Assembly: GCA_041650595.1 (NCBI GenBank)
Contig: JBAZKW010000011.1
Coordinates: 116-64,115 of the forward strand
From: Candidatus Margulisiibacteriota bacterium
GTDB taxonomy: Bacteria; Margulisbacteria; WOR-1; JAKLHX01
Direction of reading: 5' to 3'
DNA length: 64,000 bases
Below are positions 14,909-61,334 of this stretch, one piece after another. The translations under genes were made by a program, and so were the position numbers. Below the pieces are notes generated by a model. That model worked only from the letters and a program-made list of their open reading frames with translations, had not been told where the DNA came from and searched no databases. How positions within the stretch are numbered: position 1 is the stretch's first letter; every line of letters starts with the position of its first letter.

Positions 14909-14986
14909 GTCATTGCGAGGAGGAGCAAAGCGACGACGAAGCAATCCCACTATACAATGGGATTGCTTCGCTACGCTCGCAATGAC
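14909..14986. repeat. Nested palindromic REP-like element (family A: GTCATTGCGAG ... GAAGCAATCCCA / TGGGATTGCTTC ... CTCGCAATGAC)
   Basis: Outer 11-nt and inner 12-nt arms are perfect reverse complements. It lies between the ABC ATPase and permease genes. Further copies at 34473 and 42208. Confidence 0.75.
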
Positions 14987-19357: not shown

Positions 19358-20671
19358 ATGAGACAGACAATAACACAAAAGATATTGGCAGCCCATTGCG
19401 GAAAAAATGAGGTGCATCCGGGAGAATTTATCGAGGCGGATGTGGATATTGTACTGGGCAATGATATTACGGCGCCGCCGGCAATAAAAGAATTTGAGAA
19501 AATTGTAGGGGCGGATGATCATCCGCCCGCACGAGTATTCGATAAAAACAAGGTCGTGCTTGTGCCGGACCATTTCACCCCCAATAAAGACATAAAATCT
19601 GCTCAACAAGTGAAAGAAATGCGTATATTTGCCAAAAAATACGGCATAAAACATTTCTTTGAACTGGGTTGCATGGGGGTTGAACACGCATTACTACCTG
19701 AACAGGGAATCGTCTATTCGGGACAACTGATCATCGGTGCCGATTCGCACACCTGCACATACGGCGCGCTGGGCGCGTTTTCAACCGGGATCGGCTCTAC
19801 CGATATGGCGGCAGCTATGGCCACCGGAAAGGTCTGGCTAAAAGTACCTGAAACCATCAAGTTTGTCTTCAAAGGAAAACTGAACAAATGGGTCAGCGGA
19901 AAAGACCTGATCTTATATACTATCGGGAACATCGGCGTTGATGGCGCTCTGTATAAGTCCATGGAGTTCACCGGCCCTGTCATATCCAAGTTATCTATGG
20001 ACAGCCGTCTTTCTATGTGCAACATGGCTATCGAAGCCGGCGGCAAGAACGGGATCATCATACCGGACGAGATAACAAAGGAGTATATAAAAGAACATGT
20101 TGAGGCGACGCATGCGACGCCTCAACGAGCGGCGTCTCAACCAGATCCCATTTATTACACATCCGACCCCGACGCCCAATATTGCAAGGTCATCGAATAC
20201 GATTGTTCAAAGATCGAACCTCAGGTGGCCTTCCCTCACCTGCCTTCGAACACAAAACCGGTGAGCAAAGCCGGCAATGTAAAGATAGATCAGGTGGTGA
20301 TCGGCTCCTGCACTAACGGAAGGATCGAAGATATGCGTATCGCCGCAAAAGTTCTTAAGGGTAAAAAGCGTAATCCTGATATAAGACTGATAATCATCCC
20401 TGCTACACAGGAAATTTGGCAGCAGGCAAACGATGAAGGACTGTTCGATATATTCATGAAGGCCGGAGCCGCGATCTCCACTCCTACCTGCGGCCCCTGT
20501 CTGGGCGGCCACATGGGAATACTTGCCGAAGGAGAAAGAGCGCTTGCTACTACGAACAGGAACTTTGTAGGCAGAATGGGCCATCCGAAATCCGAAGTTT
20601 ATTTATCTAATGCTGCTGTCGCGGCCGCATCGGCGGTTGCGGGCAGGATAGTTTCACCGGAGGATCTATAA
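19358..20671 (+). CDS. leuC: 3-isopropylmalate (or homoaconitate) dehydratase large subunit
   Basis: Aconitase-family motifs [32 protein letters not shown]. Followed by leuD and leuB. Confidence 0.85.
20100..20140. repeat. Palindromic element TTGAGGCGaCGCATGCGaCGCCTCAA(+third arm) inside the leuC coding frame
   Basis: A 26-nt near-perfect palindrome encoding [14 protein letters not shown]. The same core recurs intergenically at 21156-21178. Confidence 0.65.
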
Positions 20672-21155: not shown

Positions 21156-21178
21156 AGGCGCCGCATGCGACGCCTCAA
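21156..21178. repeat. Intergenic copy of the GGCGnCGCATGCGACGCCTCAA palindrome
   Basis: AGGCGcCGCATGCGaCGCCTcaa lies between leuD and leuB and matches the in-frame leuC copy. Confidence 0.65.
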
Positions 21179-21199
21179 CAACATCATAGGAGGAAAATC

Positions 21200-22255
21200 A
21201 TGGTAAAGACCCACAAGATCGCAGTAATAGGCGGAGATGGGACCGGGCCTGAAGTAGTCGCGGAAGGGTTAAAGGTACTTGAAGTTGTCGGCAAAAAGTT
21301 CGGTGTGAAATACGAACTAACTCATTTTGATTACGGCGGAGAAAGATATCTCAAAACAGGCAAAATACTTGATGACAGCGAAGTTGAAGGGCTGAAAAAG
21401 TTTGACGCTATTTTTCTGGGCGCTATAGGCCATCCGGATGTCGCTCCGGGGATACTTGAAAAAGGGATACTGTTAAAAGCCCGGTTTGGCCTGGACCAAT
21501 ACATAAACCTGAGGCCGGTAAAACTTTATGAGAACGTATGGACCCCGATAAAAGATAAAGGACCGGACGACATAGATTTTGTCGTAGTAAGGGAAAATAC
21601 CGAAGGTCTGTATGTGGGTACCGGAGGCAATCTTAAAAAAGGAACAAAAGATGAAGTCGCCATACAGGATTCGATAAATACAAGAAAAGGTGTCGAAAGA
21701 TGCATACGGTACGCTTTTGAGTTAACAAGAAAGCGGAACAAGAAAAAACAGCTGACCCTTGTCGGCAAGACAAACGTCCTCACCTATGCGTTTGATCTAT
21801 GGTATAGGACTTTTATGGAAGTCGCAAAAGAATATCCTGACATCAAACCCGATTATGCCCACGTTGACGCCACTTGCATGTGGTTCGTGAAGAACCCGGA
21901 GTGGTTTGATGTAATCGTCACCGATAATCTTTTCGGCGACATCATCACCGATCTTGGCGCTATGATCCAGGGCGGAATGGGAATCGCCGCCGGCGGCAAC
22001 ATCAATCCCGAAGGCGTCTCAATGTTTGAGCCGATTGGTGGTTCCGCTCCAAAATATACGGGGAAAAACGTAATAAATCCGCTTGCCGCGATCGGCGCTC
22101 TTCAGATGTTGCTCGAAAACATCGGCGAGGAAAAAGCAGCTCATGCGGTCGAAAAATCGATCATGGCGGCTTGCAAGAAGATGCTCAGTATGTCCGCGGG
22201 AAAAATGGGTTTTTCTACCACCGAAGTCGGCGATATGGTGGCGGAAGGGATATAG
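21200..22255 (+). CDS. leuB: 3-isopropylmalate dehydrogenase
   Basis: Isocitrate/isopropylmalate dehydrogenase motifs ENTEGLYVG and NLFGDIITDLGA. 351 aa. Confidence 0.85.
   Translation: MVKTHKIAVIGGDGTGPEVVAEGLKVLEVVGKKFGVKYELTHFDYGGERYLKTGKILDDSEVEGLKKFDAIFLGAIGHPDVAPGILEKGILLKARFGLDQYINLRPVKLYENVWTPIKDKGPDDIDFVVVRENTEGLYVGTGGNLKKGTKDEVAIQDSINTRKGVERCIRYAFELTRKRNKKKQLTLVGKTNVLTYAFDLWYRTFMEVAKEYPDIKPDYAHVDATCMWFVKNPEWFDVIVTDNLFGDIITDLGAMIQGGMGIAAGGNINPEGVSMFEPIGGSAPKYTGKNVINPLAAIGALQMLLENIGEEKAAHAVEKSIMAACKKMLSMSAGKMGFSTTEVGDMVAEGI
22175..22255 (+). repeat. 81-bp direct repeat, copy 1 (functional 3' end of leuB)
   Basis: 77/81 identical to 23030-23110. Confidence 0.9.
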
Positions 22256-22266
22256 ATTAAATCTTA

Positions 22267-22959
22267 CTACCTATTTTTGACTTTAAATGCTTGCAAAAAC
22301 GTAGCTGTCCCTGCGAGAGAACATATCAATGCAGCATGTTCCATAGCCTCATATGCGCCTAACATAGCAAATGAAAGAAAACCTGCATAACGCGGATCGT
22401 TTTTCGGATCCCTTGTTTTGTCTTTGAATTCACCAATCATGAATGAAACCATATTGATCGACAATCCGCCAGTCTCCATTACTTTCATTGGTTCGTTAAC
22501 CTTAAATTCCACTCTCACTCCTTGATTTCTGAAATTAAAACCGTCTTTCCGTCGGTCAATAGGAAGTAAGTTTCCATGCCATGCTTCAGCAATTAGCTCC
22601 TTTACAGGGCGCGGCAATACACCGCGCGCATCCGCACCACAATAACCATCGAGATGAATTACAATATCCCGAATTGGAGTTGCTAATACTTCCATATCTA
22701 AAAAATTAATCTGGCGCGGGTGAAACGATCCCTCCTGTCTCTTTTTATGCGAAGATAAAGTAATGACGCTTTTCATGCCAGCACTCGTAGCTTCTGTGCC
22801 AACAAATCTTACTATATAAGGGGGATCAATAACTCCTGTTGCCGCATGAATTGTTTTATATCTTCTTTCCGCTCCTTGATTATTCCGAAAAAGAAAAGAA
22901 CCCATCTGTAGGGGAATGTGCTCTTTCGGAAATCTTACTCCTATTGATCTTATTAGCAT
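22267..22959 (-). CDS. Hypothetical protein (single cargo gene of the insertion in the leuB 3' end)
   Basis: 230-aa ORF with AAGGAGG 6 nt upstream. No recognisable motifs. Confidence 0.6.
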   Translation of the reverse strand: MLIRSIGVRFPKEHIPLQMGSFLFRNNQGAERRYKTIHAATGVIDPPYIVRFVGTEATSAGMKSVITLSSHKKRQEGSFHPRQINFLDMEVLATPIRDIVIHLDGYCGADARGVLPRPVKELIAEAWHGNLLPIDRRKDGFNFRNQGVRVEFKVNEPMKVMETGGLSINMVSFMIGEFKDKTRDPKNDPRYAGFLSFAMLGAYEAMEHAALICSLAGTATFLQAFKVKNR

Positions 22960-22998
22960 GTATCTCCTCCTTAAATCTGAATAACCTCTAACACTTTA

Positions 22999-23026
22999 TT
23001 ATCGTTAATTAAATCCCGAAATTTCA
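22999..23026 (-). promoter_or_regulatory. Sigma-28-type promoter (TGAAAT-N16-CGATAA)
   Basis: Sense strand aTGAAATttcgggatttaattaaCGATAAt. The -10 box ends 40 nt before the ATG at 22959. Confidence 0.6.
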
Positions 23027-23029
23027 TGT

Positions 23030-23110
23030 AAGAAGATGCTCAGTATGTCCGCGGGAAAAATGGGTTTTTCTACCACCGAAGTCGGCGACATGGTAGCGGA
23101 AGGGATCTAA
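23030..23110 (+). pseudogene. Displaced 3' fragment of leuB (direct repeat copy 2)
   Basis: The last 27 codons of leuB are duplicated. The 4 differences are 3 synonymous changes plus TAG->TAA. Followed by the presumed original leuB terminator. Confidence 0.85.
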
Positions 23111-23139
23111 CTCACTAAGATTTCGCTCAAGGTAGTTAT

Positions 23140-23161
23140 GCGGCGGGTTAAAACTCGCCGC
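23140..23161 (+). terminator. Hairpin GCGGCGggttaaaactCGCCGC, presumed original leuB terminator
   Basis: Stem-loop followed by a T-rich stretch, 30 nt after the displaced leuB stop. Confidence 0.5.
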
Positions 23162-23200
23162 TACTTATTTAATGCGTTTTTGCCTCGTCTTAATTTTTTA

Positions 23201-23228
23201 TGAAATTGCACTCCTTTTATATCGATAA
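23201..23228 (+). promoter_or_regulatory. Sigma-28-type promoter (TGAAAT-N16-CGATAA)
   Basis: aTGAAATtgcactccttttatatCGATAAg. Followed by AAGGAGG and the TTG start at 23266. Confidence 0.6.
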
Positions 23229-23265
23229 GTAAATAGTCGAGATCTGTTTTAAGGAGGAAATTCTA

Positions 23266-23994
23266 TTGACTGCTGGATCTTATGTCGTTTCATGCCTGCC
23301 TAAGTTTGAAGGCCGAACATTCAGGGCATTTACTATAATGCGGGGGGAAAAAATGCCCAAATCAATAAGATTAAGAGACGGCTTCATTGATAATCCTGAC
23401 GCAATTTACAAAGCAACCGGTATAAGCCCTGATATTCAAACAGTTTATGGGATTGATGGCCAGGCGGTAAATAAGAGAACGCTTGCTAAACGGTTGACAT
23501 CGGCTTTAGAAACCCTTAAAACAGATGAGAATTTTCAATTTAGAGGGCAACCCGAGCCCTCTCAGATCGCTAATATTCTTTGCGCGAGGATAGGTCTTGA
23601 GGATGATGTTCTTAATATCAACCTCGCACACATTCTCTTCGATGACAACTCGCGATCATGGGTTATGGACAGGATTGGACTTGATTGCGTCACTCGGAAC
23701 GATGCGAGCGTGGCACTCGCAGTATCATATCTAAAACAAACTACTGGAGGAGATCCTACCCTTTTTGGAAAAAAGTTGTTCCTGTTAATACAGCGGAACA
23801 CACGCGATTCTAATCATCAGATCAGCCAGAAGCCTTTTATACGTGCCGTAACCGCAGGTGTTATTGATATTGCTGATCAGGGAGTGTTAAGTCAAGTAAT
23901 TAGCAGCATGGCTAATATGGAAGTTACTGGCCGTTTCGAGGACGAACTTACGCACCTTTGTATCATCTGGGGTAAAATGTTTCGCCCTGATTAA
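23266..23994 (+). CDS. Hypothetical protein
   Basis: 242-aa ORF. TTG start 7 nt after AAGGAGG. No recognisable motifs. Its 3' end overlaps the dinB 3' end by 32 nt. Confidence 0.55.
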   Translation: MTAGSYVVSCLPKFEGRTFRAFTIMRGEKMPKSIRLRDGFIDNPDAIYKATGISPDIQTVYGIDGQAVNKRTLAKRLTSALETLKTDENFQFRGQPEPSQIANILCARIGLEDDVLNINLAHILFDDNSRSWVMDRIGLDCVTRNDASVALAVSYLKQTTGGDPTLFGKKLFLLIQRNTRDSNHQISQKPFIRAVTAGVIDIADQGVLSQVISSMANMEVTGRFEDELTHLCIIWGKMFRPD

Positions 23995-25198
23995 GATCCG
24001 GCTCCAGCTTCTGCCTCGACGTCATGCCTGTCTTCTCGGCAAGTTCGTTGTAAATTATGCTCGCTCTTGTCACGGTAAAATCCCCGTATCTGTCATTTAT
24101 TTCGTCCATCGCGGCAAGAGCGGCTCTTTTTTTGCCTTCCTGATCGAACAGACTTAGCTGGTCCGCGTTCCTGATCAGATCGGAAAGTGCCACTCCCACC
24201 AGCCTAATAGGGCGTTCCATTTCTACCATACTCAGCGCGCTTATATAAACGTCATAGCCGTCATCTATATAATCATGTATATTCTTCTGCCTGCCATACC
24301 CTGAAAAATCTCCGTACCTTAAATACAAGCTTACTACCCTGCCCTTATACCCGTATTTTCTGGCGCGGCGGCCTACCTGCTCCGACAACCGGAGAAGATA
24401 GCTTTTTACGATATCCGGGTCTGACTCGTCTTTTGGCAAAGTATAAGAGTGACTTATAGATTTTGCGTCTTTGATATTGTTTTGAGGATCGACAGGATCA
24501 TCATCTATGCCTTTACCCATATTGGAAAGATGCACCCCGCACACTAGCCCGAATTTACTCACCAGCCTTTGCACCGGATATTTGGCAAGGTCCGAACACA
24601 TCCTTATTCCGAGAGAATTGAGCCTTTTCTTGAGTTGTCTGCCAACACCACAGAGATCTTCTACCGGTATAAATTCAAATACGATAGAAATTTCGTCCTC
24701 CCCTATTTTTGTCAGGCCGTCGGGCTTTTTCATCTCGCTGGCAAGCTTTGCTACAAGCTTGTTCGGCCCTATACCGATCGAACAGGTCAGACGGAACCTC
24801 TCTTTTATCCTTCTTTTGATATCTTTTGCGATCTCTATTTCTCCTCCGTATCCGTCTTTAACCCGTGTAACATCAAGAAAGGCCTCGTCAATTGAAAAAA
24901 CCTCGACAAGGTCCGTATAATCCCGGAGCATTTTGATTATTTCTTTTGAAGTATATACATATTTGTTCATATCTCCTGTGACTACTATGAGCTCAGGACA
25001 TTTTTTTAAGGCCTCCCACGTGGGCATACCGGTCTTTACCCCGCGGGCGCGCGCTTCATATGACGAGGTCGCGACAACGGTCCTTTTGCCTATCCCTCCG
25101 CCCACGGCAATTGGCTTTCCGCGAAGCAGAGGATTTGCCGCCTGCTCGACCGAGGCAAAATAGGAGTTCATGTCGACGTGGAGGATTATTCTGTTCAT
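23963..25198 (-). CDS. dinB: Y-family DNA polymerase IV
   Basis: VDMNSYFASVEQ and SIDEAFLDVT motifs. Start reset to the ATG at 25198 (MNRIILHVDMNSYF), because the 15-codon track extension is encoded by a REP palindrome. Confidence 0.9.
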   Translation of the reverse strand: MNRIILHVDMNSYFASVEQAANPLLRGKPIAVGGGIGKRTVVATSSYEARARGVKTGMPTWEALKKCPELIVVTGDMNKYVYTSKEIIKMLRDYTDLVEVFSIDEAFLDVTRVKDGYGGEIEIAKDIKRRIKERFRLTCSIGIGPNKLVAKLASEMKKPDGLTKIGEDEISIVFEFIPVEDLCGVGRQLKKRLNSLGIRMCSDLAKYPVQRLVSKFGLVCGVHLSNMGKGIDDDPVDPQNNIKDAKSISHSYTLPKDESDPDIVKSYLLRLSEQVGRRARKYGYKGRVVSLYLRYGDFSGYGRQKNIHDYIDDGYDVYISALSMVEMERPIRLVGVALSDLIRNADQLSLFDQEGKKRAALAAMDEINDRYGDFTVTRASIIYNELAEKTGMTSRQKLEPDLNQGETFYPR

Positions 25199-25205
25199 AT
25201 TAATA

Positions 25206-25235
25206 TGTAGGGGGCGATTGCAATCGCCCCCTACA
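25206..25235. repeat. REP-like palindrome TGTAGGGGGCGATTG/CAATCGCCCCCTACA (family B)
   Basis: Perfect 15-nt arms, between orf71 and dinB. Confidence 0.7.
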
Positions 25236-25451
25236 TTATTCATCGATCTCCCACCTCATCTCCTTGTCATCAAACATCAATTCAAACGTGTTAACGCCAT
25301 CACTTACTGCAAAATGATAAACCTTAGACAAGCCGTTTTTTGTCTGCCATTCATAATTTATCTCCTGTATCCGATACTGTCTGTTTTCAAGAACAAACCA
25401 GACGGGTTTTAATTTCCCTTTTTCGAATATTGTTGCTACTTTTATTGACAT
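25236..25451 (-). CDS. Small hypothetical protein between lexA and dinB
   Basis: 71-aa ORF, same strand, in the lexA-dinB operon position. No recognisable motifs and no SD. Confidence 0.45.
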   Translation of the reverse strand: MSIKVATIFEKGKLKPVWFVLENRQYRIQEINYEWQTKNGLSKVYHFAVSDGVNTFELMFDDKEMRWEIDE

Positions 25452-25458
25452 AATTATA

Positions 25459-25491
25459 TGCGTAGAGGCGGGTTTTAAACCCGCCTCTACA
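25459..25491. repeat. REP-like palindrome GTAGAGGCGGGTTT/AAACCCGCCTCTAC (family B)
   Basis: Perfect palindrome between lexA and orf71. Confidence 0.7.
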
Positions 25492-25507
25492 TTGGTTCCT
25501 GATTTAT

Positions 25508-26101
25508 TTAATATTTCCTGATCAGCCCCATCACCTTCCCCACCAACCTGAAATCATGGTCCACTCTTATCGGTGCATACCGAGAATTATAAGGCTGCAG
25601 CACTACATGGTCCCTTCTTCTGAAATATTTTTTCACTGTGGCCTCGTCATCTATCAATGCGACCACGATATCGCCGTTGTCCGCCTGCGGCTGGGGCTTT
25701 ACGATTATCATGTCACCTTCGTTTATTCCCGCGTCTATCATGCTGTCGCCCCGTACTTTTAATATAAAGCCGTCCCTCATGTTCTTTGCAAAATCCCACG
25801 CTATCGGTATAGTATCCTCTATGTTTTCAACGGCCAGTATCGGCCTTCCCGCCGCCACAGTTCCTACCAGCGGAAGGTTCACGACCCTTTTTCTGCCGAG
25901 GATCTCTATGCTCCTTGCATTTGAATCCCTTTTTATATATCCTTTTTCTTCAAGGGCCTTTAAATGGCTGTACACCGCCTTTGTTGACTTTATTTTGAAC
26001 TGCGCGCAGATCTCCCTTATAGAGGGAGCAAATCCTTTTGTTCCCATAAAATCGCTCACATAATCAAAAATATTCTTCTGCCGGTCTGTCAGTTGTTCCA
26101 T
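25508..26101 (-). CDS. lexA: LexA repressor (S24 peptidase)
   Basis: wHTH N-terminus, VAAG cleavage site, catalytic GDSM and VKKY lysine. Confidence 0.95.
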   Translation of the reverse strand: MEQLTDRQKNIFDYVSDFMGTKGFAPSIREICAQFKIKSTKAVYSHLKALEEKGYIKRDSNARSIEILGRKRVVNLPLVGTVAAGRPILAVENIEDTIPIAWDFAKNMRDGFILKVRGDSMIDAGINEGDMIIVKPQPQADNGDIVVALIDDEATVKKYFRRRDHVVLQPYNSRYAPIRVDHDFRLVGKVMGLIRKY

Positions 26102-26295: not shown

Positions 26296-27174
26296 ATGAA
26301 AACGAATAAGTTGGCATATCTAAAATGGATAATCGGCGAACTTAATGAGGGTTTGAATCTGAACTCGTTCACTAAGAACATTCACTCTCCCCTTTCGTTC
26401 GAAGAAATAGTCCCAGAAGGCAGCGATAAAATGGTTCAGCTGAACAGGCTTATGGTCGCCTCGGAGATCTACCGGTGGATAATGGGCGGAAAATGGCGGC
26501 TTCTCGATCTGGAACATATCTTAAGAAGCCAGGACGCAGAAAAAGAGTTCAATCACAAGCAGATAAAAGAGAATATCAAGGACCTGATAGACGGACAGGA
26601 AGTAAAAGGACCGGAAACTCTAAAAATGTGCCTTTTGCTTACCGGAATAAAGCCGGAAATAATAGACAATGTTAGCTATACCGTCCAAAAAAGATATTTT
26701 TATACCGGAAATTCGAGCAAGCTGTGGTCTTCCATCGGCTACTATGACATGCAGGACAAAAGTATCCATGTAAGTACCGGAGGCAAAAGAGGCGATAAAA
26801 AAGCAGTATTCCCTCTGGAGGACATAATGGAAACAGCTGCCCATGAACTCGGTCATCATATATATATTTCGATCGTTTCAAAAAGGTTTAAGACGCCTGC
26901 CGGCACCATACCCAGGATCAGAAACATCCTCAAAGGCGTAAAGACATCAAAAAGCGATACCGAACACAAGCAATGGACAGGCTTTTATAAAAAAGACTAC
27001 GGCAACGACTGGGAAAAGAACAAAGCTTTGCAAATAATACCAAAAGATGTCTATATCCGGTATGGCCTAGAGAACGAACTTTTTGCGCAGGTCATCGGAG
27101 GGAAAACGACTATATCAAAGACCAGAAGAAAACAACTCGTGGACCTCATAAACCAATCATGTCAGGTTTGCTGA
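26296..27174 (+). CDS. Hypothetical protein with HExxH zinc-metallopeptidase motif
   Basis: Start reset to the ATG at 26296, because the track extension runs through the lexA promoter and repeat. Contains ETAAHELGHHIY. Confidence 0.5.
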   Translation: MKTNKLAYLKWIIGELNEGLNLNSFTKNIHSPLSFEEIVPEGSDKMVQLNRLMVASEIYRWIMGGKWRLLDLEHILRSQDAEKEFNHKQIKENIKDLIDGQEVKGPETLKMCLLLTGIKPEIIDNVSYTVQKRYFYTGNSSKLWSSIGYYDMQDKSIHVSTGGKRGDKKAVFPLEDIMETAAHELGHHIYISIVSKRFKTPAGTIPRIRNILKGVKTSKSDTEHKQWTGFYKKDYGNDWEKNKALQIIPKDVYIRYGLENELFAQVIGGKTTISKTRRKQLVDLINQSCQVC

Positions 27175-28103
27175 TCACCCTTGCGTGACATTTCTTCCCT
27201 GATAAGCCCTGCCAATCCATCATTTATCTTTTCGAGCTCGGCCAGTATCAGCGCTATCTTTTCTTGTCCTTGGAACAAAATAAGCTCCAAAGCCCTCTTT
27301 GCATCGCATGATGAATATTCAAAATGAGTTTCTTCGGGCTGATCAACGACCCATTTACCGTGAAGTCTAAAGAGAGTAGATATCCCTTTCACATACATAG
27401 TTTCACCATCAAAACGGGCTATTTCTTCCGAGTCAACGACTTGTTTTGTCATCGGGATAATCTTTGAAAGTACCGAAGCTATTACATCCGGTTCGGCGTT
27501 TTTATGCGATGCCACATATTTTTGTACTTCGTCAGGGCCTACGCGGGAGATATAGCGCAGGACACCGGGAGCCATAACTCCTCTTAAAGAAAGGTTCGCA
27601 AAAGCTACAGGTCCCAATACAGAGCTCTTGTACACAAAAGGTCTTAATACGCTTTGAGGGGTACGCGGATCGGCCGCAACCCTTGACAAAACTCCAAAAT
27701 GAGAACTTTTTGAAAGCGCTATAAGATCGGGAACCTTTATAAGCCCCCTTGAATCGAGTTCATCATAGGCATAAACGGCAAAAACCGTATTGGACATAGC
27801 AAAATTTAACAGAGCTTGATTACAGTCCGTAAATCTAAAAGATTCCTTTATAACATCGCCGTCAAAATTCAGAAGCCGCAAAGGATCAAAACCGGCGGAA
27901 TATCTTCCGGCAAGGTTTTTTGCGATAAGCTTTTTAGTGTCACCGGCTTCATCAAAAGACAGCGTTTCAAGTTTGCGAAGTCTGGTAAAAGGATCGCTGG
28001 CGATAGTATGCGCGGACCTTCCGGACAGAGGCATCCCAAAAGCCCTTGCATAACGATAGCTGAATAAAGCGCCGGTCTTTGCGGCGATACTACGGATATT
28101 CAT
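27162..28103 (-). CDS. Hypothetical protein
   Basis: 313-aa ORF with no recognisable motifs. Preceded by a sigma-28-type box only 12 nt from the ATG. Confidence 0.55.
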   Translation of the reverse strand: MNIRSIAAKTGALFSYRYARAFGMPLSGRSAHTIASDPFTRLRKLETLSFDEAGDTKKLIAKNLAGRYSAGFDPLRLLNFDGDVIKESFRFTDCNQALLNFAMSNTVFAVYAYDELDSRGLIKVPDLIALSKSSHFGVLSRVAADPRTPQSVLRPFVYKSSVLGPVAFANLSLRGVMAPGVLRYISRVGPDEVQKYVASHKNAEPDVIASVLSKIIPMTKQVVDSEEIARFDGETMYVKGISTLFRLHGKWVVDQPEETHFEYSSCDAKRALELILFQGQEKIALILAELEKINDGLAGLIREEMSRKGDQQT

Positions 28104-28115
28104 GTTTATGATAGA

Positions 28116-28143
28116 TTATCGTTGTTTTTTGCGCAAAATCCCA
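28116..28143 (-). promoter_or_regulatory. Sigma-28-type promoter, variant -35 (TGGGAT-N16-CGATAA)
   Basis: Sense strand tTGGGATtttgcgcaaaaaacaaCGATAAtctatcataaacATG. Confidence 0.45.
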
Positions 28144-28150
28144 AAAAAAC

Positions 28151-28178
28151 TGAAATTTCTTATTAATTCAATCGATAA
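28151..28178 (+). promoter_or_regulatory. Sigma-28-type promoter (TGAAAT-N16-CGATAA)
   Basis: cTGAAATttcttattaattcaatCGATAAg. AAGGAG lies before the ATG at 28221. Confidence 0.6.
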
Positions 28179-28220
28179 GAAAATGTAGCCTTTCGTTTAT
28201 AAAATAAGGAGAAGAATAGA

Positions 28221-29564
28221 ATGCCGTATATATCTGCGCTCAACCCCATGCCAATGGTCCCGAGAATGGTGCCTGCGGCTGTAATGAACAGGATCGAACA
28301 TCTGACACCGCGGATCAGGGATATGTTTTCCCCGGACGTAAAAGTAAGGCTGACAGCGACAGAAGAGGTTGGAAAGGCATTAGCAGCGATCGGGATCCCT
28401 CAAACCAATACAATGGGAAATCACTACCATGGCAAGCATTCGTGGGGACCTGGATATCCCGCTTCTCTCGCGTTCTTTTCCGCGGCAAACGGCTTGTCTG
28501 TGACAGGTCTTGTCGATCATTACAGCGTATCAGGAGCGCTCGAATTCAGGAAAGCTTCATTTACCCATTTCGGCATACCGGCCACGGTCGGATATGAGGT
28601 AAGATCTCTCATAAGGGACCGGCTTATATGCGGAGGCCTCGATCTCTCAAAGACAGTTATGAATTCACCCGGAAATCCCGGCGAAATATATGTTGTTTTT
28701 CACGGGTTTCCAGGTAACAGAAATTCTTGGCTTGCTCTAGCAAGACAGGACAAATTCAAAAGATATGAGAGTGTGACAGCAAAGATCAACGACAATATCA
28801 GCAGCCGGTGTGCGGGGCTTTCACCCATTGATTTTCAAAGTGTCGTTGCCCTCTCTGAGGAAGGTAATATTACTGATAGACATTTGATGGATGTATTGTT
28901 CGATATGGTATTTGACCACTGCCAAGGTAATTTTGACGATGTAGTTGACAGGATCACAAGCTGGTGGGGAGCGATAACCGCAGACGAACAGGCTGGTTTA
29001 GACAGCGCTAAAGATGATGAGTTCTCAAAATACATGCTAATCGCGCACAGCATGATGAGAGGTAGATTATTGAAGGACGGCAAGCTCGGATATATCGCCC
29101 CGTCCGAGATCGAGGCTCCTTCGCTTGGGAATTTATCGCGGATCGCGGATGAAGAAGACAGTATCCTTGTATATCCGGCATATAAATTTGATATCCCATA
29201 TCTTGAGCATTTAATACCGATGCTTGTACGAGATCACGGGTTTAGGTCCCTATCGTTGATGTTCGACAGGAACACACCTGATGAAAGAGCCAAAATATTA
29301 AGGTGTGCGGAAGAATCTGTTATCCCCGCATTCAGCGGCATGGATGTCAACAATTGGTCGCAGACTTGGGTAAATAAGTTTTCGGATATCCCGGAATTTA
29401 TCGAAGGCGCGCTTGCTCTCGTTGGGCATGAAATCTCGGTAAGGGCGGGAAAACTTGGTCTATTCGACAATACATGGTTCCCCAATACACCGGCAGGATT
29501 AAAGCAAAGATTACAACATTTCGCTTTCTTGGGTTCGCAATGGAAAGACGCAACAGCAAGTTAA
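28221..29564 (+). CDS. Hypothetical protein, possible PHP-like metal-dependent phosphoesterase fold
   Basis: After a roughly 65-aa N-terminal extension, NHYHGKHSWGPG ... GLVDHYSVSG resembles PHP motifs HxH...S.DG and TDHD. The assignment is weak. Confidence 0.5.
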   Translation: MPYISALNPMPMVPRMVPAAVMNRIEHLTPRIRDMFSPDVKVRLTATEEVGKALAAIGIPQTNTMGNHYHGKHSWGPGYPASLAFFSAANGLSVTGLVDHYSVSGALEFRKASFTHFGIPATVGYEVRSLIRDRLICGGLDLSKTVMNSPGNPGEIYVVFHGFPGNRNSWLALARQDKFKRYESVTAKINDNISSRCAGLSPIDFQSVVALSEEGNITDRHLMDVLFDMVFDHCQGNFDDVVDRITSWWGAITADEQAGLDSAKDDEFSKYMLIAHSMMRGRLLKDGKLGYIAPSEIEAPSLGNLSRIADEEDSILVYPAYKFDIPYLEHLIPMLVRDHGFRSLSLMFDRNTPDERAKILRCAEESVIPAFSGMDVNNWSQTWVNKFSDIPEFIEGALALVGHEISVRAGKLGLFDNTWFPNTPAGLKQRLQHFAFLGSQWKDATAS

Positions 29565-31046: not shown

Positions 31047-31074
31047 TGAAATTTTTCATAAAAGCTGTCGATAA
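31047..31074 (+). promoter_or_regulatory. Sigma-28-type promoter (TGAAAT-N16-CGATAA)
   Basis: aTGAAATttttcataaaagctgtCGATAAg. AAAGGAG lies before the ATG at 31126. Confidence 0.6.
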
Positions 31075-31125: not shown

Positions 31126-32250
31126 ATGGCAGTGACCACGGCATTATCGTTCCCCATGCTTAATCGAAATCAATTGATTTTTCAACCGCTTGCTGCAAGA
31201 AAGAACAAATTCGATGTTTCAAAAATGATCCGGCCGGATGCGGTACGCAAAAATATGGGAGAAAAAGGTGAGGCTGTCATGCGGGAAACGATCGACCGCA
31301 TCAGGGCTGCCCGTGAAAGCGGGAAATCCAGGATGTTAACTTTTGGCGCTCACACGATAAAGAACGGATTATCACCGGTATTGATAAGACTGATCGAGGA
31401 CGGTTGGATAACTCATCTTGCCACCAACGGCGCCGGGATAATTCATGACTGGGAGCTGGCTTTTCATGGAGAGACAAGCGAAGACGTGAGAGAAAATACG
31501 TCAAAAGGCGAGTTTGGCGCATCGCAGGAGACCGGTTTTAATATCAATATGGCGATTATTATGGGAGCGTATCATGGTCTGGGCTACGGTGCTTCAATAG
31601 GCGCGATGGTGCATAATGACGGATTTGAAATACCGAACCGAGGGGTTTTACTGAGTGAAGCTCAGTATTTGATGGAAAGCAATCCGGACAAGGCACTTTC
31701 AGCTATCAATTTGTTACAGAAGATTAAGGAATTAGGCTTAAAACACGACCAGTTTGTTTCGGTCCCTCATCAATATAAGGAATACGGACTGCAGGCCGCG
31801 GCATACCGATTAGGGATCCCTTTCACAGGACACCCTATGATCGGCCATGATATTATTTACATTCATCCCGCAAATTCATGCATAGCGATCGGTCAGGCCG
31901 CTGAACGGGATTTCCTTGCTTTTGCACATAATGTAAGCAATCTTGACGGGGGCGTCTATATTTCTCTGGGATCAGCGGTCATGTCGCCAATGATATTTGA
32001 AAAATCGCTTTCAATGTCGCAAAACCTGGCGATACAGAACGGCAGGCACATAGATAATCATTATATGGTCATAGCCGATCTGCAGGAATGCACCTGGGAT
32101 TGGTCACAAGGAGAACCGCCGGAAACCGATCCCGCATATTATCTGCGTTTTATGAAAACCTTTGCGCGCATGGGCGGAACAGCCCATTATATGACAGCCG
32201 ACAACCGCGACTTCTTATTAGCGCTGTGGCAGGGACTGCAAAAGGTCTAA
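31126..32250 (+). CDS. Hypothetical protein, deoxyhypusine-synthase-like (DHS-like Rossmann) fold suspected
   Basis: MLTFGAHTIKNGLSPVLIRLIEDGWITHLATNGAGIIHDWELAFHGETSEDV resembles the bacterial DHS-family core. It has a roughly 60-aa N-terminal extension. Confidence 0.5.
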   Translation: MAVTTALSFPMLNRNQLIFQPLAARKNKFDVSKMIRPDAVRKNMGEKGEAVMRETIDRIRAARESGKSRMLTFGAHTIKNGLSPVLIRLIEDGWITHLATNGAGIIHDWELAFHGETSEDVRENTSKGEFGASQETGFNINMAIIMGAYHGLGYGASIGAMVHNDGFEIPNRGVLLSEAQYLMESNPDKALSAINLLQKIKELGLKHDQFVSVPHQYKEYGLQAAAYRLGIPFTGHPMIGHDIIYIHPANSCIAIGQAAERDFLAFAHNVSNLDGGVYISLGSAVMSPMIFEKSLSMSQNLAIQNGRHIDNHYMVIADLQECTWDWSQGEPPETDPAYYLRFMKTFARMGGTAHYMTADNRDFLLALWQGLQKV

Positions 32251-32273
32251 CGTCATTTCGAGCTCTACAATAA

Positions 32274-32291
32274 CCGAGCATGAATGCTCGG
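32274..32291 (+). terminator. Hairpin CCGAGCATgaATGCTCGG flanked by CTACA motifs
   Basis: 8-bp perfect stem 24 nt after the stop of the preceding ORF. No T-run, so it may be REP-like rather than a terminator. Confidence 0.35.
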
Positions 32292-32329
32292 CTACAGACA
32301 TTGATTAGGGACAAATAATTCCTAACAAC

Positions 32330-32357
32330 TGAAATCCTCCCCTTTTTTTATCGAAAA
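32330..32357 (+). promoter_or_regulatory. Sigma-28-type promoter, variant -10 (TGAAAT-N16-CGAAAA)
   Basis: cTGAAATcctcccctttttttatCGAAAAtacattagacaggtATG. No SD. Confidence 0.45.
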
Positions 32358-32371
32358 TACATTAGACAGGT

Positions 32372-33658
32372 ATGTTAACAGAACAACAGATAATTAATCC
32401 CACCAGGCCGATACACTTTCAGGCCGCTAATCGGCTCGGACAGTTAAGGCCTGACCGTGCGGCTGGTGTATTAAATGATATTGCCTCGGGCAATATAGGC
32501 CGCGCATCGATCCTGCTGGTGGATATCAGAGAACGTTTTGGCAGGAGAGCTGTTAACAATATCATGAACAGCATGCCCTCTCAGGTCAAAAGAAGTGCTA
32601 TTGAATTCATCAGCAACATGCCAACTTTTGATGCCGCAAAATTTAGAAAAGATGTGTTAAAAATGCCTGCTGATGAGGCCTATGCTTTGAGCCATCACGC
32701 CTGGCAGAATATATATCCGCTGGCAGATTACAATCATTCAAGATTACATGCATATTACTCCGGATTTTCTGAACAAGATATCCGTTCAATAATTAGCGCT
32801 GCGGACGCGTCACATCAGGCTTTTGCCCCGCTATTTTTTGATGCCGACGCATCAGATACGAACATATCCGAATTTTACAGGTGGGCCGGAGCATTATTCC
32901 CTGCGGACAGTTATGGCTATCATTCCATTTGGGAGAAAATGACGCTTGCCGGCGGAACTTCACAATTCGAGGTCCGCCTGCCTAAAGGCCCGGGTTTTGA
33001 CGGAACCGGCGTGCAATTCCATCAATGTTGCCATACGGCAATTGCAGCCAGAAGCTTTTTCTCTCAACTTGGTATGCCATCAGAAGTCTTGCATTTTATG
33101 CTCCCGTCAAAGTTCACTCATAACGCCGCTGTCATATTCTCTCCTGGAATCATTGGAATAAAAACAACACTTGTTGATGCAAGTCCGTTCGCGCGCGCTT
33201 TTTCGGAGCAGCAGATGGCAAATGTCGTCCCCATGAGCTGGAATCTCATCAGGTCCGACACAAACGATACACACTGTTTCGCAAAACAGATATACATAGA
33301 CGATATGGGCGGCAATTCCCTGCCGTGGTTCAGCCATCAGTTAGGCCATGGCACGAATTTGATTGGGTTTGTTCACGTAGTGGTCAGATACGACCGGAGT
33401 ATCGCAAGTAAAGCCGATAATGAGGGATATACAAGCCTTCTGCCTGAACTGGAGATCATACTGACATCACCTGACAGACGTTTCACTAATTTCGGGCTCC
33501 CTATTCTAAGGGGAAACGGTGATGAGATATCATTTCTGTGGAGCGGCATTCAAAGGGCCCGCTTAGGTGCAACAATGATCGACGCGATCGAAGCTGCTTC
33601 ACTTGAGCCTGCAAGACATTTTATCCAAATGCTCCAAGGATTTAAGATCATCCGCTGA
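32372..33658 (+). CDS. Hypothetical protein with NAT/transglutaminase-like Cys-His-Asp arrangement
   Basis: GVQFHQCCHTAIAARSFFSQLGMP ... THNAAVIF ... TLVDASPF is collinear with the Cys...His...Asp triad of arylamine N-acetyltransferase and papain-like folds. Confidence 0.5.
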   Translation: MLTEQQIINPTRPIHFQAANRLGQLRPDRAAGVLNDIASGNIGRASILLVDIRERFGRRAVNNIMNSMPSQVKRSAIEFISNMPTFDAAKFRKDVLKMPADEAYALSHHAWQNIYPLADYNHSRLHAYYSGFSEQDIRSIISAADASHQAFAPLFFDADASDTNISEFYRWAGALFPADSYGYHSIWEKMTLAGGTSQFEVRLPKGPGFDGTGVQFHQCCHTAIAARSFFSQLGMPSEVLHFMLPSKFTHNAAVIFSPGIIGIKTTLVDASPFARAFSEQQMANVVPMSWNLIRSDTNDTHCFAKQIYIDDMGGNSLPWFSHQLGHGTNLIGFVHVVVRYDRSIASKADNEGYTSLLPELEIILTSPDRRFTNFGLPILRGNGDEISFLWSGIQRARLGATMIDAIEAASLEPARHFIQMLQGFKIIR

Positions 33659-34472: not shown

Positions 34473-34544
34473 GTCATTGCGAGCGTAGCGAAGCAATCCC
34501 ATAGATAAATGGGATTGCTTCAGGGCTTCGCCCTTCGCAATGAC
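34473..34544. repeat. Nested palindromic REP-like element (family A)
   Basis: GTCATTGCGAG...GAAGCAATCCCA/TGGGATTGCTTC...TTCGCAATGAC, between tpiA and pfp. Confidence 0.75.
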
Positions 34545-38323: not shown

Positions 38324-40027
38324 CTAAAACTTACACCCTGCAGGAATTGCCCGATCCATAGCGTATTGTATTTCGTCAAGAATCCTTTGTCCCGTATTCA
38401 TGTCTGCTAAGCGCAATCCTGCCTTTCTTAACATCTCATAAACAGTTGCCAAATCAATATGCTCTGCCTGTCCTGATGCAAGGACATCAACCATCGCAAG
38501 TGTTTGTGAAGCATTCATTTGGAAATTGCCTACCTCTAGAATAATAAGATTGATTTCTTCACCGACCATTTTTTTGAGCTGTTGAAAAAGCTGATACATT
38601 GCAGATGGAGTGCCGGGTCGAGAAACAATTCTTGATATTTCCTCAATCCCCATTAGAAGCAGCTTAAGTGACGGATAACCTTCGCGCCGCTTGCCGAAAG
38701 AAAGCGGCAGCTCTCCGCGCAGGAATCTTTCTGCATCTGTATGATATGGCCTGCTTTGTTCCGAGCCGATGAATGAACTGATCCATTGCCTTGCTGTGCT
38801 CTGAGCTTTTTCCTCAAAATTGTCCAAACCTTTTTCCTCATACAAATAAACAAGCCCACGGACAATTCCGTGGAAAGCAACGCTTGGGTTTGAAAGGCGA
38901 GATAGAGTGCGGGCTTGATATTCCATATGTCCAGCAGCAATTTTGTCCCCTTTAGGCCTGACATTATCGACTGCCATAAGATCCACGAGAGAACGGACAA
39001 ATCTGGGTATGCTTACACCTGTCTTTCTTTCTCTTATTGATATAAGACGCAATTCATGCCTATCCTCCGCTGATTTTCTATAGATAGTATCGCCTGCATT
39101 AAGGAAATAATTTGCTATTGTTGTACCGCCTTTGGCCTCAGGTTCGTAATGATAAACAATGGAAGCAATGACCTCTGCAAGGACATCCGCAACATCTTCC
39201 TCGGGAAGTTTGACCAGTCGGCTTCTTTCGCCGCAAAACTCCCAGCGCCAGAGGGTCCCGTGTTCAAAACCCAGCTCTTCATAACCGCCGAGAAATTGTG
39301 AAATCCCGATCGTATATTTTTGATCGGCGACTGTCACATTACGTACTCCATAAGGTTTAGGAAGGAATCTTCGCCTTCCGATGCGCCAATAATGTTCAAA
39401 ATATTGCTGATTTTTGGCAATTGTTTCCGCACGCATTTTATTTTTGTTGCGCGGGATCTCCACGACAAGCTGCGGATTGCCGTCAATATTCACCTTCAGC
39501 AACTGCGAAAATGATCCCTGCTTAAATAACTCGAACTCTATTGTGTTCACATCAGGGCTAACTCCAAAAGGATGCCACAGCATTTTATCAGCCAACAGTT
39601 CATGTGCAGCTTTCCTTCTCAGATTGCCCAATTCTTCTCCGTCTAACATGTTTTTAGGGTCCGGATCATATGGTTCCGGAAAAGGTGTTATGTAATTCGT
39701 CTGAGCTCCTTCTAAAGAGTCATCATCTATTTGAGCTTGCAGAATCTGTTGCATAATAAGATGGTTTTGACCACTTTGTAATATCAATCCCCTTTTTCTT
39801 GAAATTTCACTGACAATTGCCGGTGATAGAGCAGGATGAACGAGCAGCTCTTCTAAAACAGCACTCAGCGCCGCTTTTTGCTTTGGAGAAATACCTCCCA
39901 GTTTGGCTTCGACTTTTGGCATGACCCGAGTAGCATTAAGCGATCTGCTGCCCAAATCAATATGTGAAGCTCTAAGGACTTGCGGCGTAAAACCTGATCT
40001 ATGACCCATACAGCTTGTAACTCTCAT
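38324..40027 (-). CDS. Hypothetical protein
   Basis: 567-aa ORF with no secure motifs. Its N-terminus resembles those of the two downstream genes. Confidence 0.55.
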   Translation of the reverse strand: MRVTSCMGHRSGFTPQVLRASHIDLGSRSLNATRVMPKVEAKLGGISPKQKAALSAVLEELLVHPALSPAIVSEISRKRGLILQSGQNHLIMQQILQAQIDDDSLEGAQTNYITPFPEPYDPDPKNMLDGEELGNLRRKAAHELLADKMLWHPFGVSPDVNTIEFELFKQGSFSQLLKVNIDGNPQLVVEIPRNKNKMRAETIAKNQQYFEHYWRIGRRRFLPKPYGVRNVTVADQKYTIGISQFLGGYEELGFEHGTLWRWEFCGERSRLVKLPEEDVADVLAEVIASIVYHYEPEAKGGTTIANYFLNAGDTIYRKSAEDRHELRLISIRERKTGVSIPRFVRSLVDLMAVDNVRPKGDKIAAGHMEYQARTLSRLSNPSVAFHGIVRGLVYLYEEKGLDNFEEKAQSTARQWISSFIGSEQSRPYHTDAERFLRGELPLSFGKRREGYPSLKLLLMGIEEISRIVSRPGTPSAMYQLFQQLKKMVGEEINLIILEVGNFQMNASQTLAMVDVLASGQAEHIDLATVYEMLRKAGLRLADMNTGQRILDEIQYAMDRAIPAGCKF

Positions 40028-40062: not shown

Positions 40063-40090
40063 TTATCGGCAATAAGGCGTGTGGATTTCA
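40063..40090 (-). promoter_or_regulatory. Sigma-28-type promoter (TGAAAT-N16-CGATAA; full GCCGATAA)
   Basis: Sense strand tTGAAATccacacgccttattGCCGATAAa. Confidence 0.65.
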
Positions 40091-61289: not shown

Positions 61290-61334
61290 AATATGATCTC
61301 CCTTCAATAGTGATTATAATTCCATCTACATGTT

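Follow-up and report, generated by a model that had tools for sequence, protein, structure and literature searches.

The e14 element of Escherichia coli is about 15 kb long, has an integrase gene of its own and is excised when the SOS response is induced. Its replacement end keeps the target gene, icd, intact, and the original end persists as icdC, with mainly silent or conservative differences (PMC13626634). For type VI secretion system (T6SS) and rhs loci, displacement of a gene's 3' end by way of a homologous anchor and an illegitimate joint has been proposed (PMC5361080). Here we describe a locus that resembles both, in 64,000 nucleotides from a Candidatus Margulisiibacteriota bacterium (contig JBAZKW010000011.1 of assembly GCA_041650595.1; 'the window' below means this whole 64-kb stretch, and coordinates are counted from its first nucleotide). 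In it, the 3' end of leuB, the gene for 3-isopropylmalate dehydrogenase, occurs twice, on either side of a 771-nt segment that carries one gene, ORF230, with a promoter of its own. The best reading of this arrangement, to which we give somewhat better than an even chance, is a one-off recombinational '3'-end displacement'.

The features of the locus are, from left to right:

21200-22255, plus strand: leuB, intact, encoding a 3-isopropylmalate dehydrogenase of 351 aa; repeat copy 1 makes up its last 84 nt
22172-22255, plus strand: repeat copy 1, the last 27 codons and TAG of the functional leuB, followed by foreign sequence without counterpart in relatives
22256-23026, no strand assigned: inserted segment of 771 nt, consisting of an 11-nt spacer, ORF230, its 5' untranslated region and its promoter
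22267-22959, minus strand: ORF230, 230 aa, convergent with leuB, its stop 11 nt from the leuB stop
22964-22972, minus strand: Shine-Dalgarno sequence of ORF230, AAGGAGGAG, as read from the sequence
22999-23025, minus strand: sigma-28-type promoter of ORF230, GAAATTTC-N11-AACGATAA (-35 box 23025-23018, -10 box 23006-22999)
23027-23110, plus strand: repeat copy 2, 27 codons and TAA, attached to no reading frame and taken to be the displaced resident leuB end
23140-23161, plus strand: intrinsic terminator hairpin, presumed to be the original leuB terminator; a hairpin terminator occupies the corresponding position in the related locus L097

The leuB gene follows leuC and leuD, and its product matches the NCBIfam equivalog NF002898 (PRK03437.1, 3-isopropylmalate dehydrogenase) over its full length with 530.7 bits. 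It also matches Pfam Iso_dh; leuB and icd are both in PF00180. The terminal 27 codons and stop recur as a direct repeat of 84 nt (22172-22255 against 23027-23110, an offset of 855 nt), which starts exactly at a codon boundary and is identical at 79 of 84 positions. The original prediction had rightly called this repeat but had given it 81 nt and four differences, TGC/TGT having been missed. Together with GAT/GAC, GTG/GTA, ATA/ATC and TAG/TAA this makes five differences, all of them silent third-position changes, and the translation of both copies is CKKMLSMSAGKMGFSTTEVGDMVAEGI*. The sequences flanking the two copies are unrelated on either side. This is the longest direct repeat of the window. 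No second duplicated gene end was found there, either in the DNA or at the protein level, where the 45 residues at each end of all 53 open reading frames (ORFs) were compared with the window.

Between 21 and 23% of the possible single substitutions in the 84 nt are silent. If the copies had been identical at first and had then diverged where they are, copy 1 under constraint and copy 2 without it, the probability that all five differences would be silent is about 0.007; it is 0.0006 if every change fell in the free copy. Because all five are nevertheless silent, the two ends must have diverged inside functional leuB genes, as the ends of working genes in two genomes. This supports the earlier proposal that leuB was restored by an incoming end, and copy 1 would be that incoming (donor) end, wholly or partly. 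The five differences are clustered and leave an identical run of 59 nt (22175-22233), which has a probability of about 0.01 when five differences are placed randomly on the 25 sites capable of silent change. Such a run is expected of a homologous crossover or conversion tract, or of a conserved recombination core. Third positions at the five variable sites are saturated in relatives, so parsimony gave no inference, and a scan for donor tracts inside leuB, by sliding-window identity to relatives at 77-86% DNA identity, gave an uninformative pattern.

Which of the two ends is the resident one is indicated by related loci. The comparison set comprised 20 related leuB loci, numbered L085-L104, in seven distinct contexts (L085, L086-88, L089-96, L097/98, L099-102, L103 and L104). 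The closest LeuB proteins are 94-97% identical at the amino acid level and Margulisiibacteriota-like; named relatives slightly further off belong to Candidatus Margulisiibacteriota, Saganbacteria and WOR-1. The window and the relatives' contigs have in common the gene order dnaX-alr-two histidine kinases-leuCDB and, further on, dinB-orf73-lexA-291 aa-pyk-tpiA-pfk. Because their DNA identity to the window is only 77-86%, we regard these as relatives at the level of the genus and not as strains. A scan of GTDB genomes with LeuB gave relatives at no more than 78% identity, from many phyla, and a metagenome scan with a degenerate back-translation of the LeuB C-terminal 18 residues gave one contig, L085.

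In all seven related contexts the leuB 3' end is present once. None of the 20 loci contains a nucleotide match to the 771-nt insert or to the sequence right of copy 2, and ORF230 is absent from all of them, which bears out the claim that the unit between the copies is an insertion. The comparison with empty sites that had been suggested thus gave single leuB ends without ORF230 but, at this level of DNA identity, no exact empty site. In most of the related contexts a plus-strand gene of one fast-evolving family comes after leuB; its members of 385, 380, 391, 367 and 275+ aa are 34-67% identical, against about 95% for the LeuB proteins of their hosts. The corresponding part of the window, beyond the terminator, reads as follows:

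23202-23228, plus strand: sigma-28-type promoter of ORF242, GAAATTGC-N11-ATCGATAA; equivalents precede the orthologous gene in L097 and L099
23266-23994, plus strand: ORF242, native to this position; it is a diverged member of the fast-evolving family found after leuB in relatives
23963-26101, minus strand: right-hand context with dinB (23963-25243), a 71-aa ORF (25236-25451) and lexA (25508-26101), identified by Pfam and by synteny with L089, L090 and L093

ORF242 matches the family by blastp with an E value of 3e-4 (to the L089 and L093 proteins) and by hhalign with a probability of 76% and an E value of 2.3e-5. The two have in common the N-terminal motif KF.G..(I/F)RAF....MP..(V/I)RL, and the position, orientation and promoter type of ORF242 are those of the family gene, the promoter being as in L097 and L099. 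On these grounds we take ORF242 to be a weak but credible member of the family. Because the relatives have a single leuB end and, in most contexts, a gene of the ORF242 family after it, copy 2, the terminator, the promoter and ORF242 together constitute the resident arrangement, and ORF230 with the copy 1 end would be the newcomer. The original prediction had likewise taken copy 2 for the original leuB end, followed by a terminator hairpin at 23140-23161; the hairpin is present there, and its counterpart in L097 supports the same assignment.

The interval between leuB and lexA (22256-25500 in the window) is a hypervariable slot, in which relatives have differing sets of genes without Pfam domains despite LeuB proteins that are about 95% identical. 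In L085 leuB and lexA are 104 nt apart, with no gene between them. L086-L088 have a 391-aa gene, and L089-L096 have two genes, one of 385 aa on the plus strand and one of 408 aa on the minus strand. In L097/L098 leuB is followed by a terminator, which was read directly in L097, and then by a gene of at least 275 aa with a sigma-28-type promoter before it. L103 has a 123-aa fragment of the 408-aa family. In L099-L102 a 235-aa minus-strand orphan begins 3 nt past the leuB stop and precedes a 367-aa gene. L085 and L099 lack the dinB-orf71 portion of the lexA operon. The convergent 235-aa orphan (L099 6795-7640; also in L100-L102) occupies the slot that ORF230 has in the window. In L099 its sigma-28-type -35 box is 4 nt from the -35 box of its divergent neighbour, the leuB terminator known from L097 is missing, and no repeat flanks the orphan. 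It was considered as a homologue of ORF230 and rejected, the sequences being unrelated.

Within the window, the 771-nt stretch between the copies is unique sequence. The GC content at third codon positions (GC3) of ORF230 is 0.325, against a window mean of 0.475 (standard deviation 0.051), or 2.9 standard deviations lower, which agrees with ORF230 being the newcomer. The -35 box of its promoter matches the recurrent -35 box described below at 8/8 positions. This promoter had been noticed beside copy 2 before, and with the 84-nt boundaries of the repeat the gap between them is 1 nt (4 nt by the boundaries used then). There are no inverted repeats at the insert ends and no imperfect, attC-like palindrome at the end of ORF230, where only the 11-nt spacer is found. 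In agreement with the original prediction, no integrase or transposase Pfam domain occurs among the Pfam-scanned ORFs of at least 150 aa in the window; ORF230 has no similarity to recombinases by sequence or fold, and the window contains no tRNA genes or Rfam matches. Since no terminator lies between leuB and ORF230, leuB transcripts would continue through ORF230, antisense to it, as far as the old terminator, and those of ORF230 would likewise enter leuB in antisense.

ORF230 matched nothing in Pfam, NCBIfam, PHROG or PADLOC that would indicate its function, and a word-index protein search returned only ORF230 itself. An exhaustive phmmer search of 1.84 billion representatives gave ten further proteins with E values up to 0.001, all without domains: seven are 216-282 aa long and 22-37% identical to ORF230, and the other three are very long proteins that aligned in many short stretches or in none. 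The earlier description of ORF230 as an orphan does not survive these ten or so remote homologues; it is a real gene, belongs to a family that is very rare and uncharacterised, and is no strict orphan. A profile search with the family found no members beyond the phmmer set. The family alignment has 20 invariant positions and the motifs YKT(L/I)HAAxG, DAWxGxLLP and NxVxLxxGE. From it, AlphaFold (AF2) gave a beta-rich model with a long C-terminal helix (pLDDT 75, pTM 0.80), which has no significant structural neighbours in PDB or BFVD, and the family profile matched no PDB sequence. No relatives of ORF230 were found on mobile DNA, as represented by IMG/VR viral contigs, GenBank phages and PLSDB plasmids.

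Five loci with ORF230 homologues have varied surroundings, namely tsaD-gatCAB, tpiA-methyltransferase, Zn-ribbon/tig-clpP and tandem arrays of two or three paralogues. None of the five has leuB as a neighbour or a flanking duplication. An 11-nt-spaced sigma-28-type site is found upstream of the homologues in L081 (twice), L082, L083/L084 and L105, and for the homologue in L106 the scan listed none. The tandem arrays consist of three paralogues in L081 (541-2738) and two in L105 (8001-9392), with 32-40% identity; the first and third paralogues of L081 each carry a near-identical 77-nt promoter/leader block. Among the orphan genes of the window there is no paralogy.

We propose that a foreign transcription unit, composed of the 230-aa gene with its ribosome-binding site and sigma-28-type promoter, came into this chromosome attached to at least 84 nt of a donor leuB end. 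The donor would have been a related genome in which ORF230 directly followed leuB in convergent orientation, like the 235-aa gene of L099; because the slot in L099 holds such a different orphan, donors of this kind are plausible. Recombination within leuB would have joined the incoming end to the resident leuB body, and the resident end would thereby have moved 855 nt downstream, still joined to its own terminator and ORF242. The left crossover would be homologous, most likely inside or upstream of the 59-nt identical core, and the right joint (23026/23027) would be illegitimate, the ORF230 promoter meeting leuB codon 325 just upstream of the -35 box. Two routes could lead to this product: homology-facilitated illegitimate recombination of a linear donor fragment, or circularisation of the fragment followed by a single Campbell-type crossover in the 59-nt core. 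With the present data the two are indistinguishable. By either route an element-encoded recombinase would not be needed, and leuB would stay functional. The original prediction had read the repeats as the signature of Campbell-type or site-specific integration; restoration of the target agrees with that, but it does not establish the mechanism, and a homology-anchored illegitimate event fits equally well.

We favour a one-off event, with no dedicated att site, because ORF230 homologues are never found at leuB and never with flanking duplications, and because there is no recombinase domain among the Pfam-scanned ORFs of the window, no inverted repeat at the insert ends and no second leuB end in relatives. 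Several points weigh against this reading. A conspecific genome was not found (the closest DNA is 77-86% identical), and with it there is neither an exact empty site nor an identified donor. Microhomology at the 23026/23027 joint amounts only to TG, with which both copies begin. In the usual descriptions of homology-facilitated illegitimate recombination, recipient DNA is deleted and not duplicated. The insert is trimmed nearly to the transcription unit, with the stop plus 11 nt at one end and 1-4 nt beyond the -35 box at the other, and this looks more designed than a random illegitimate joint predicts. Finally, the structure is known from the assembled contig alone, so that an assembly problem is formally possible.

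The same close trimming, with almost no spare DNA around a single transcription unit, is the strongest point in favour of site-specific integration in trans, an explanation that we think unlikely. It would have an 855-bp circle, made of the leuB 3' end and the ORF230 unit, integrate into an attB inside leuB through an attP mimicking the leuB end; the enzyme would be a tyrosine or serine recombinase whose gene lies on a helper element or at another place in the genome. Phage 21 and e14 use icd in this manner, and cis-mobilisable elements integrate likewise. Direct repeats of the target 3' end around the insert, with the gene restored, give the classical attL/attR picture known from icd and icdC (PMC13626634). 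The perfect 59-nt core is bounded by differences, and the slot downstream of leuB has been used repeatedly by different orphan genes in relatives. Against this, leuB is not a recurrent target of the ORF230 family, which argues against a dedicated att site there: 0/5 homologue loci adjoin leuB or have flanking repeats, and no related leuB locus, including L099 with its other orphan, has a second leuB end. The 59-nt core is without a further copy elsewhere in the window, no recombinase was found there, and ORF230 has no phage, plasmid or viral-contig relatives among the collections searched.

A broader possibility concerns the promoter of ORF230, which belongs to a recurrent class. The FliA/SigD (sigma-28) consensus is TAAA-N15-GCCGATAA. 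The sequence GAAATTTC-N11-nnCGATAA can be written GAAA-N15-nnCGATAA and has the sigma-28 spacing and -10 box. With at least 6/8 matches in the -35 box, the pattern GAAATTTC-N11-nnCGATA(A/T) occurs at 5 sites in the window, against 0.27 in shuffles. The sigma-28-type sites found by the motif scan, with the genes behind them, are:

22999-23025, minus strand: site before ORF230
23202-23228, plus strand: site before ORF242
28152-28178, plus strand: site before a 447-aa gene (28221-29564)
31048-31074, plus strand: site before a 374-aa gene (31126-32250)
40063-40089, minus strand: weaker site before a 567-aa gene (38324-40027)
28116-28142, minus strand: weaker site before a 313-aa gene (27162-28103)

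The first four sites match the -35 box at 7/8 positions or better, and each is 35-50 nt upstream of a Shine-Dalgarno sequence and start codon. None of the six genes has a Pfam domain or is recognisably a flagellar or chemotaxis gene, and no Pfam-annotated gene of the window has a well-placed site before it. Per 100 kb, the motif occurs 6.3-6.5 times in the window and relatives and 0.7 times in a control set of 80 loci that belong to other phyla, a roughly 9-fold difference; 3/5 of the hits in this control set come from its one Margulisiibacteriota metagenome-assembled genome (MAG). No sigma factor gene was seen in the window. The unrelated orphans behind leuB in L099 and L103 also have a sigma-28-type site before them. 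Compared with L089 13844-16977 (291 aa-pyk-tpiA), the window has four extra genes without Pfam domains, at 27162-29564 and 31126-33658. They lie on either side of pyk, in its intervals to the 291-aa homologue and to tpiA, with ends that overlap the core gene ends or are 9 nt from them, and no junction scars were detected at these four genes.

Lineage-specific genes in Margulisiibacteriota-like genomes may conceivably travel as cassettes of sigma-28 promoter plus gene that insert into core genes or between them, with the -35 box as one boundary and no cis-encoded recombinase, but we consider this quite improbable. If they do, the leuB event may be a fresh insertion that still has its scar, and older insertions may be scarless, candidates being the 235-aa gene of L099 and the orphans around pyk and tpiA in the window. 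The suggestion that such genes spread as promoter-plus-gene units has circumstantial support from the varied contexts of the homologues, from the same type of promoter in nearly all of them and from the L099 orphan in the slot. The further scars that it led one to look for did not turn up, since neither the five homologue loci nor the rest of the window has a flanking duplication, which leaves the scar at leuB as the sole junction evidence for such units. The observations are compatible with gene gain in this lineage by way of promoter-plus-gene units but do not demonstrate that the units move; a shared regulon, together with ordinary recombination at variable slots, explains them just as well.

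To an assembly artefact or strain chimera, in which two strains that differ after leuB would have had both ends threaded into one contig, we give little credence. The source, one contig of 318 kb, is of the metagenome type, the arrangement is known from the assembly, and the copies differ only by silent changes resembling single-nucleotide polymorphisms, as strain alleles would. However, both junctions are novel and must exist in reads for a graph or overlap assembler to produce them, and simple haplotype collapse would not be expected to make the joint between the ORF230 promoter and leuB codon 325. The unique sequence between the copies also speaks against an artefact, as does the biological coherence of the arrangement, with its intact genes, promoter and terminator.

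Duplication in situ, whether by an insertion that copied 84 nt of target or by a tandem duplication later trimmed by deletion, with the copies diverging in place, would explain why direct repeats immediately bracket the inserted DNA, but it has very little to recommend it: five of five differences are silent though copy 2 is untranslated (P ~0.007), known transposon target-site duplications are about 2-15 bp, there are no terminal inverted repeats and no transposase, and the composition of ORF230 is foreign. A DDE transposon or insertion sequence was rejected, with no transposase, no inverted repeats at the ends and a duplication of 84 bp.

Some other repeats and genes of the window are recorded here. 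A 28-nt perfect palindrome, GTTGAGGCGACGCATGCGACGCCTCAAC, lies in frame within leuC (20099-20126) and has a near copy in the leuD-leuB spacer (21156-21179); in leuC it sits in a loop, where the LeuC proteins of relatives are 4-7 residues shorter. It looks like a small repeat of the repetitive extragenic palindromic (REP) or miniature inverted-repeat transposable element (MITE) kind, tolerated in a coding region. A hairpin repeat, CGAAGCAATCCCA...TGGGATTGCTTC, is common to 14937-14969, just after an ABC ATPase gene, and 34489-34521, just after tpiA, and the leuD-leuB spacer of L086 has a similar one; these are probably a family of terminator-like palindromic elements. The 1700-aa ORF at 56205-61307 (minus strand) has FBPase_C near its C-terminus as its only Pfam match, and the rest of it is uncharacterised.

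The locus shows very legibly how one accessory gene can become part of a compact chromosome, within a housekeeping operon, and do no damage there: the incoming DNA gives a replacement gene end, and the old end stays behind as a dated scar. As the all-silent differences show, a short 'pseudogene' fragment can be a displaced allele and not a decaying duplicate, which bears on annotation and on the recognition of recombination in MAGs. As a lead, the lineage-specific sigma-28-type promoter before hypervariable genes without Pfam domains is more promising, for orphan recruitment and regulation in a poorly known phylum. The leuB locus itself is a clean single example of a known recombination scar, with no evidence for a new mobile element.

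Among known systems, integron cassettes and cis-mobilizable elements (CIMEs) resemble the insert in being single-gene or att-flanked units without a recombinase of their own. An integron cassette has attC at its 3' end and an ORF that is normally promoterless, and it depends on an intI/attI platform. Here, in contrast to integron cassettes and CIMEs, there is no attC, attI or intI, the gene has its own promoter, the end of the target gene is duplicated, and no helper recombinase was identified. An integron gene cassette was rejected for ORF230 on its own promoter, the lack of a palindrome at the ORF end and the lack of an integrase in the window.

Campbell-type integration, which produces a merodiploid, likewise leaves an insert bracketed by direct repeats of the shared homology, and its crossover should fall in the longest stretch of identity, which here has 59 nt. 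Compared with the usual case, the 84 nt of homology are very short, and neither a replicon nor a circular form is known. With e14 and phage 21 at icd, the locus has in common an insertion into the 3' end of a beta-decarboxylating dehydrogenase gene (PF00180), completion of the gene by the element-proximal copy, and a duplicated target 3' end that brackets the insert (22172-22255 and 23027-23110). Unlike e14, the insert has 771 nt, one gene and no recombinase. Nor is there a sign of repeated use of leuB: relatives are empty-like, with a single leuB end and no ORF230, but at only 77-86% DNA identity, and the homologues are never at leuB.

The likeness to rhs, cdiA and T6SS effector loci is in the process, in which homology-anchored DNA brings a new 3' end and the resident end is shifted downstream as an orphan fragment (PMC5361080). 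The corresponding features are found at leuB, where copy 2 lies downstream in the same orientation and is joined to native DNA, and where the two ends show coding-constrained divergence. In those loci, by contrast, the displaced ends are different toxins with immunity genes and diversity is selected, whereas at leuB both ends encode the identical housekeeping peptide and the payload is a separate, convergent gene. The event is thus of a known kind, replacement of a target-gene end with displacement of the old one, and its minimal form is unusual, with a single gene, no recombinase and a housekeeping gene as the target.

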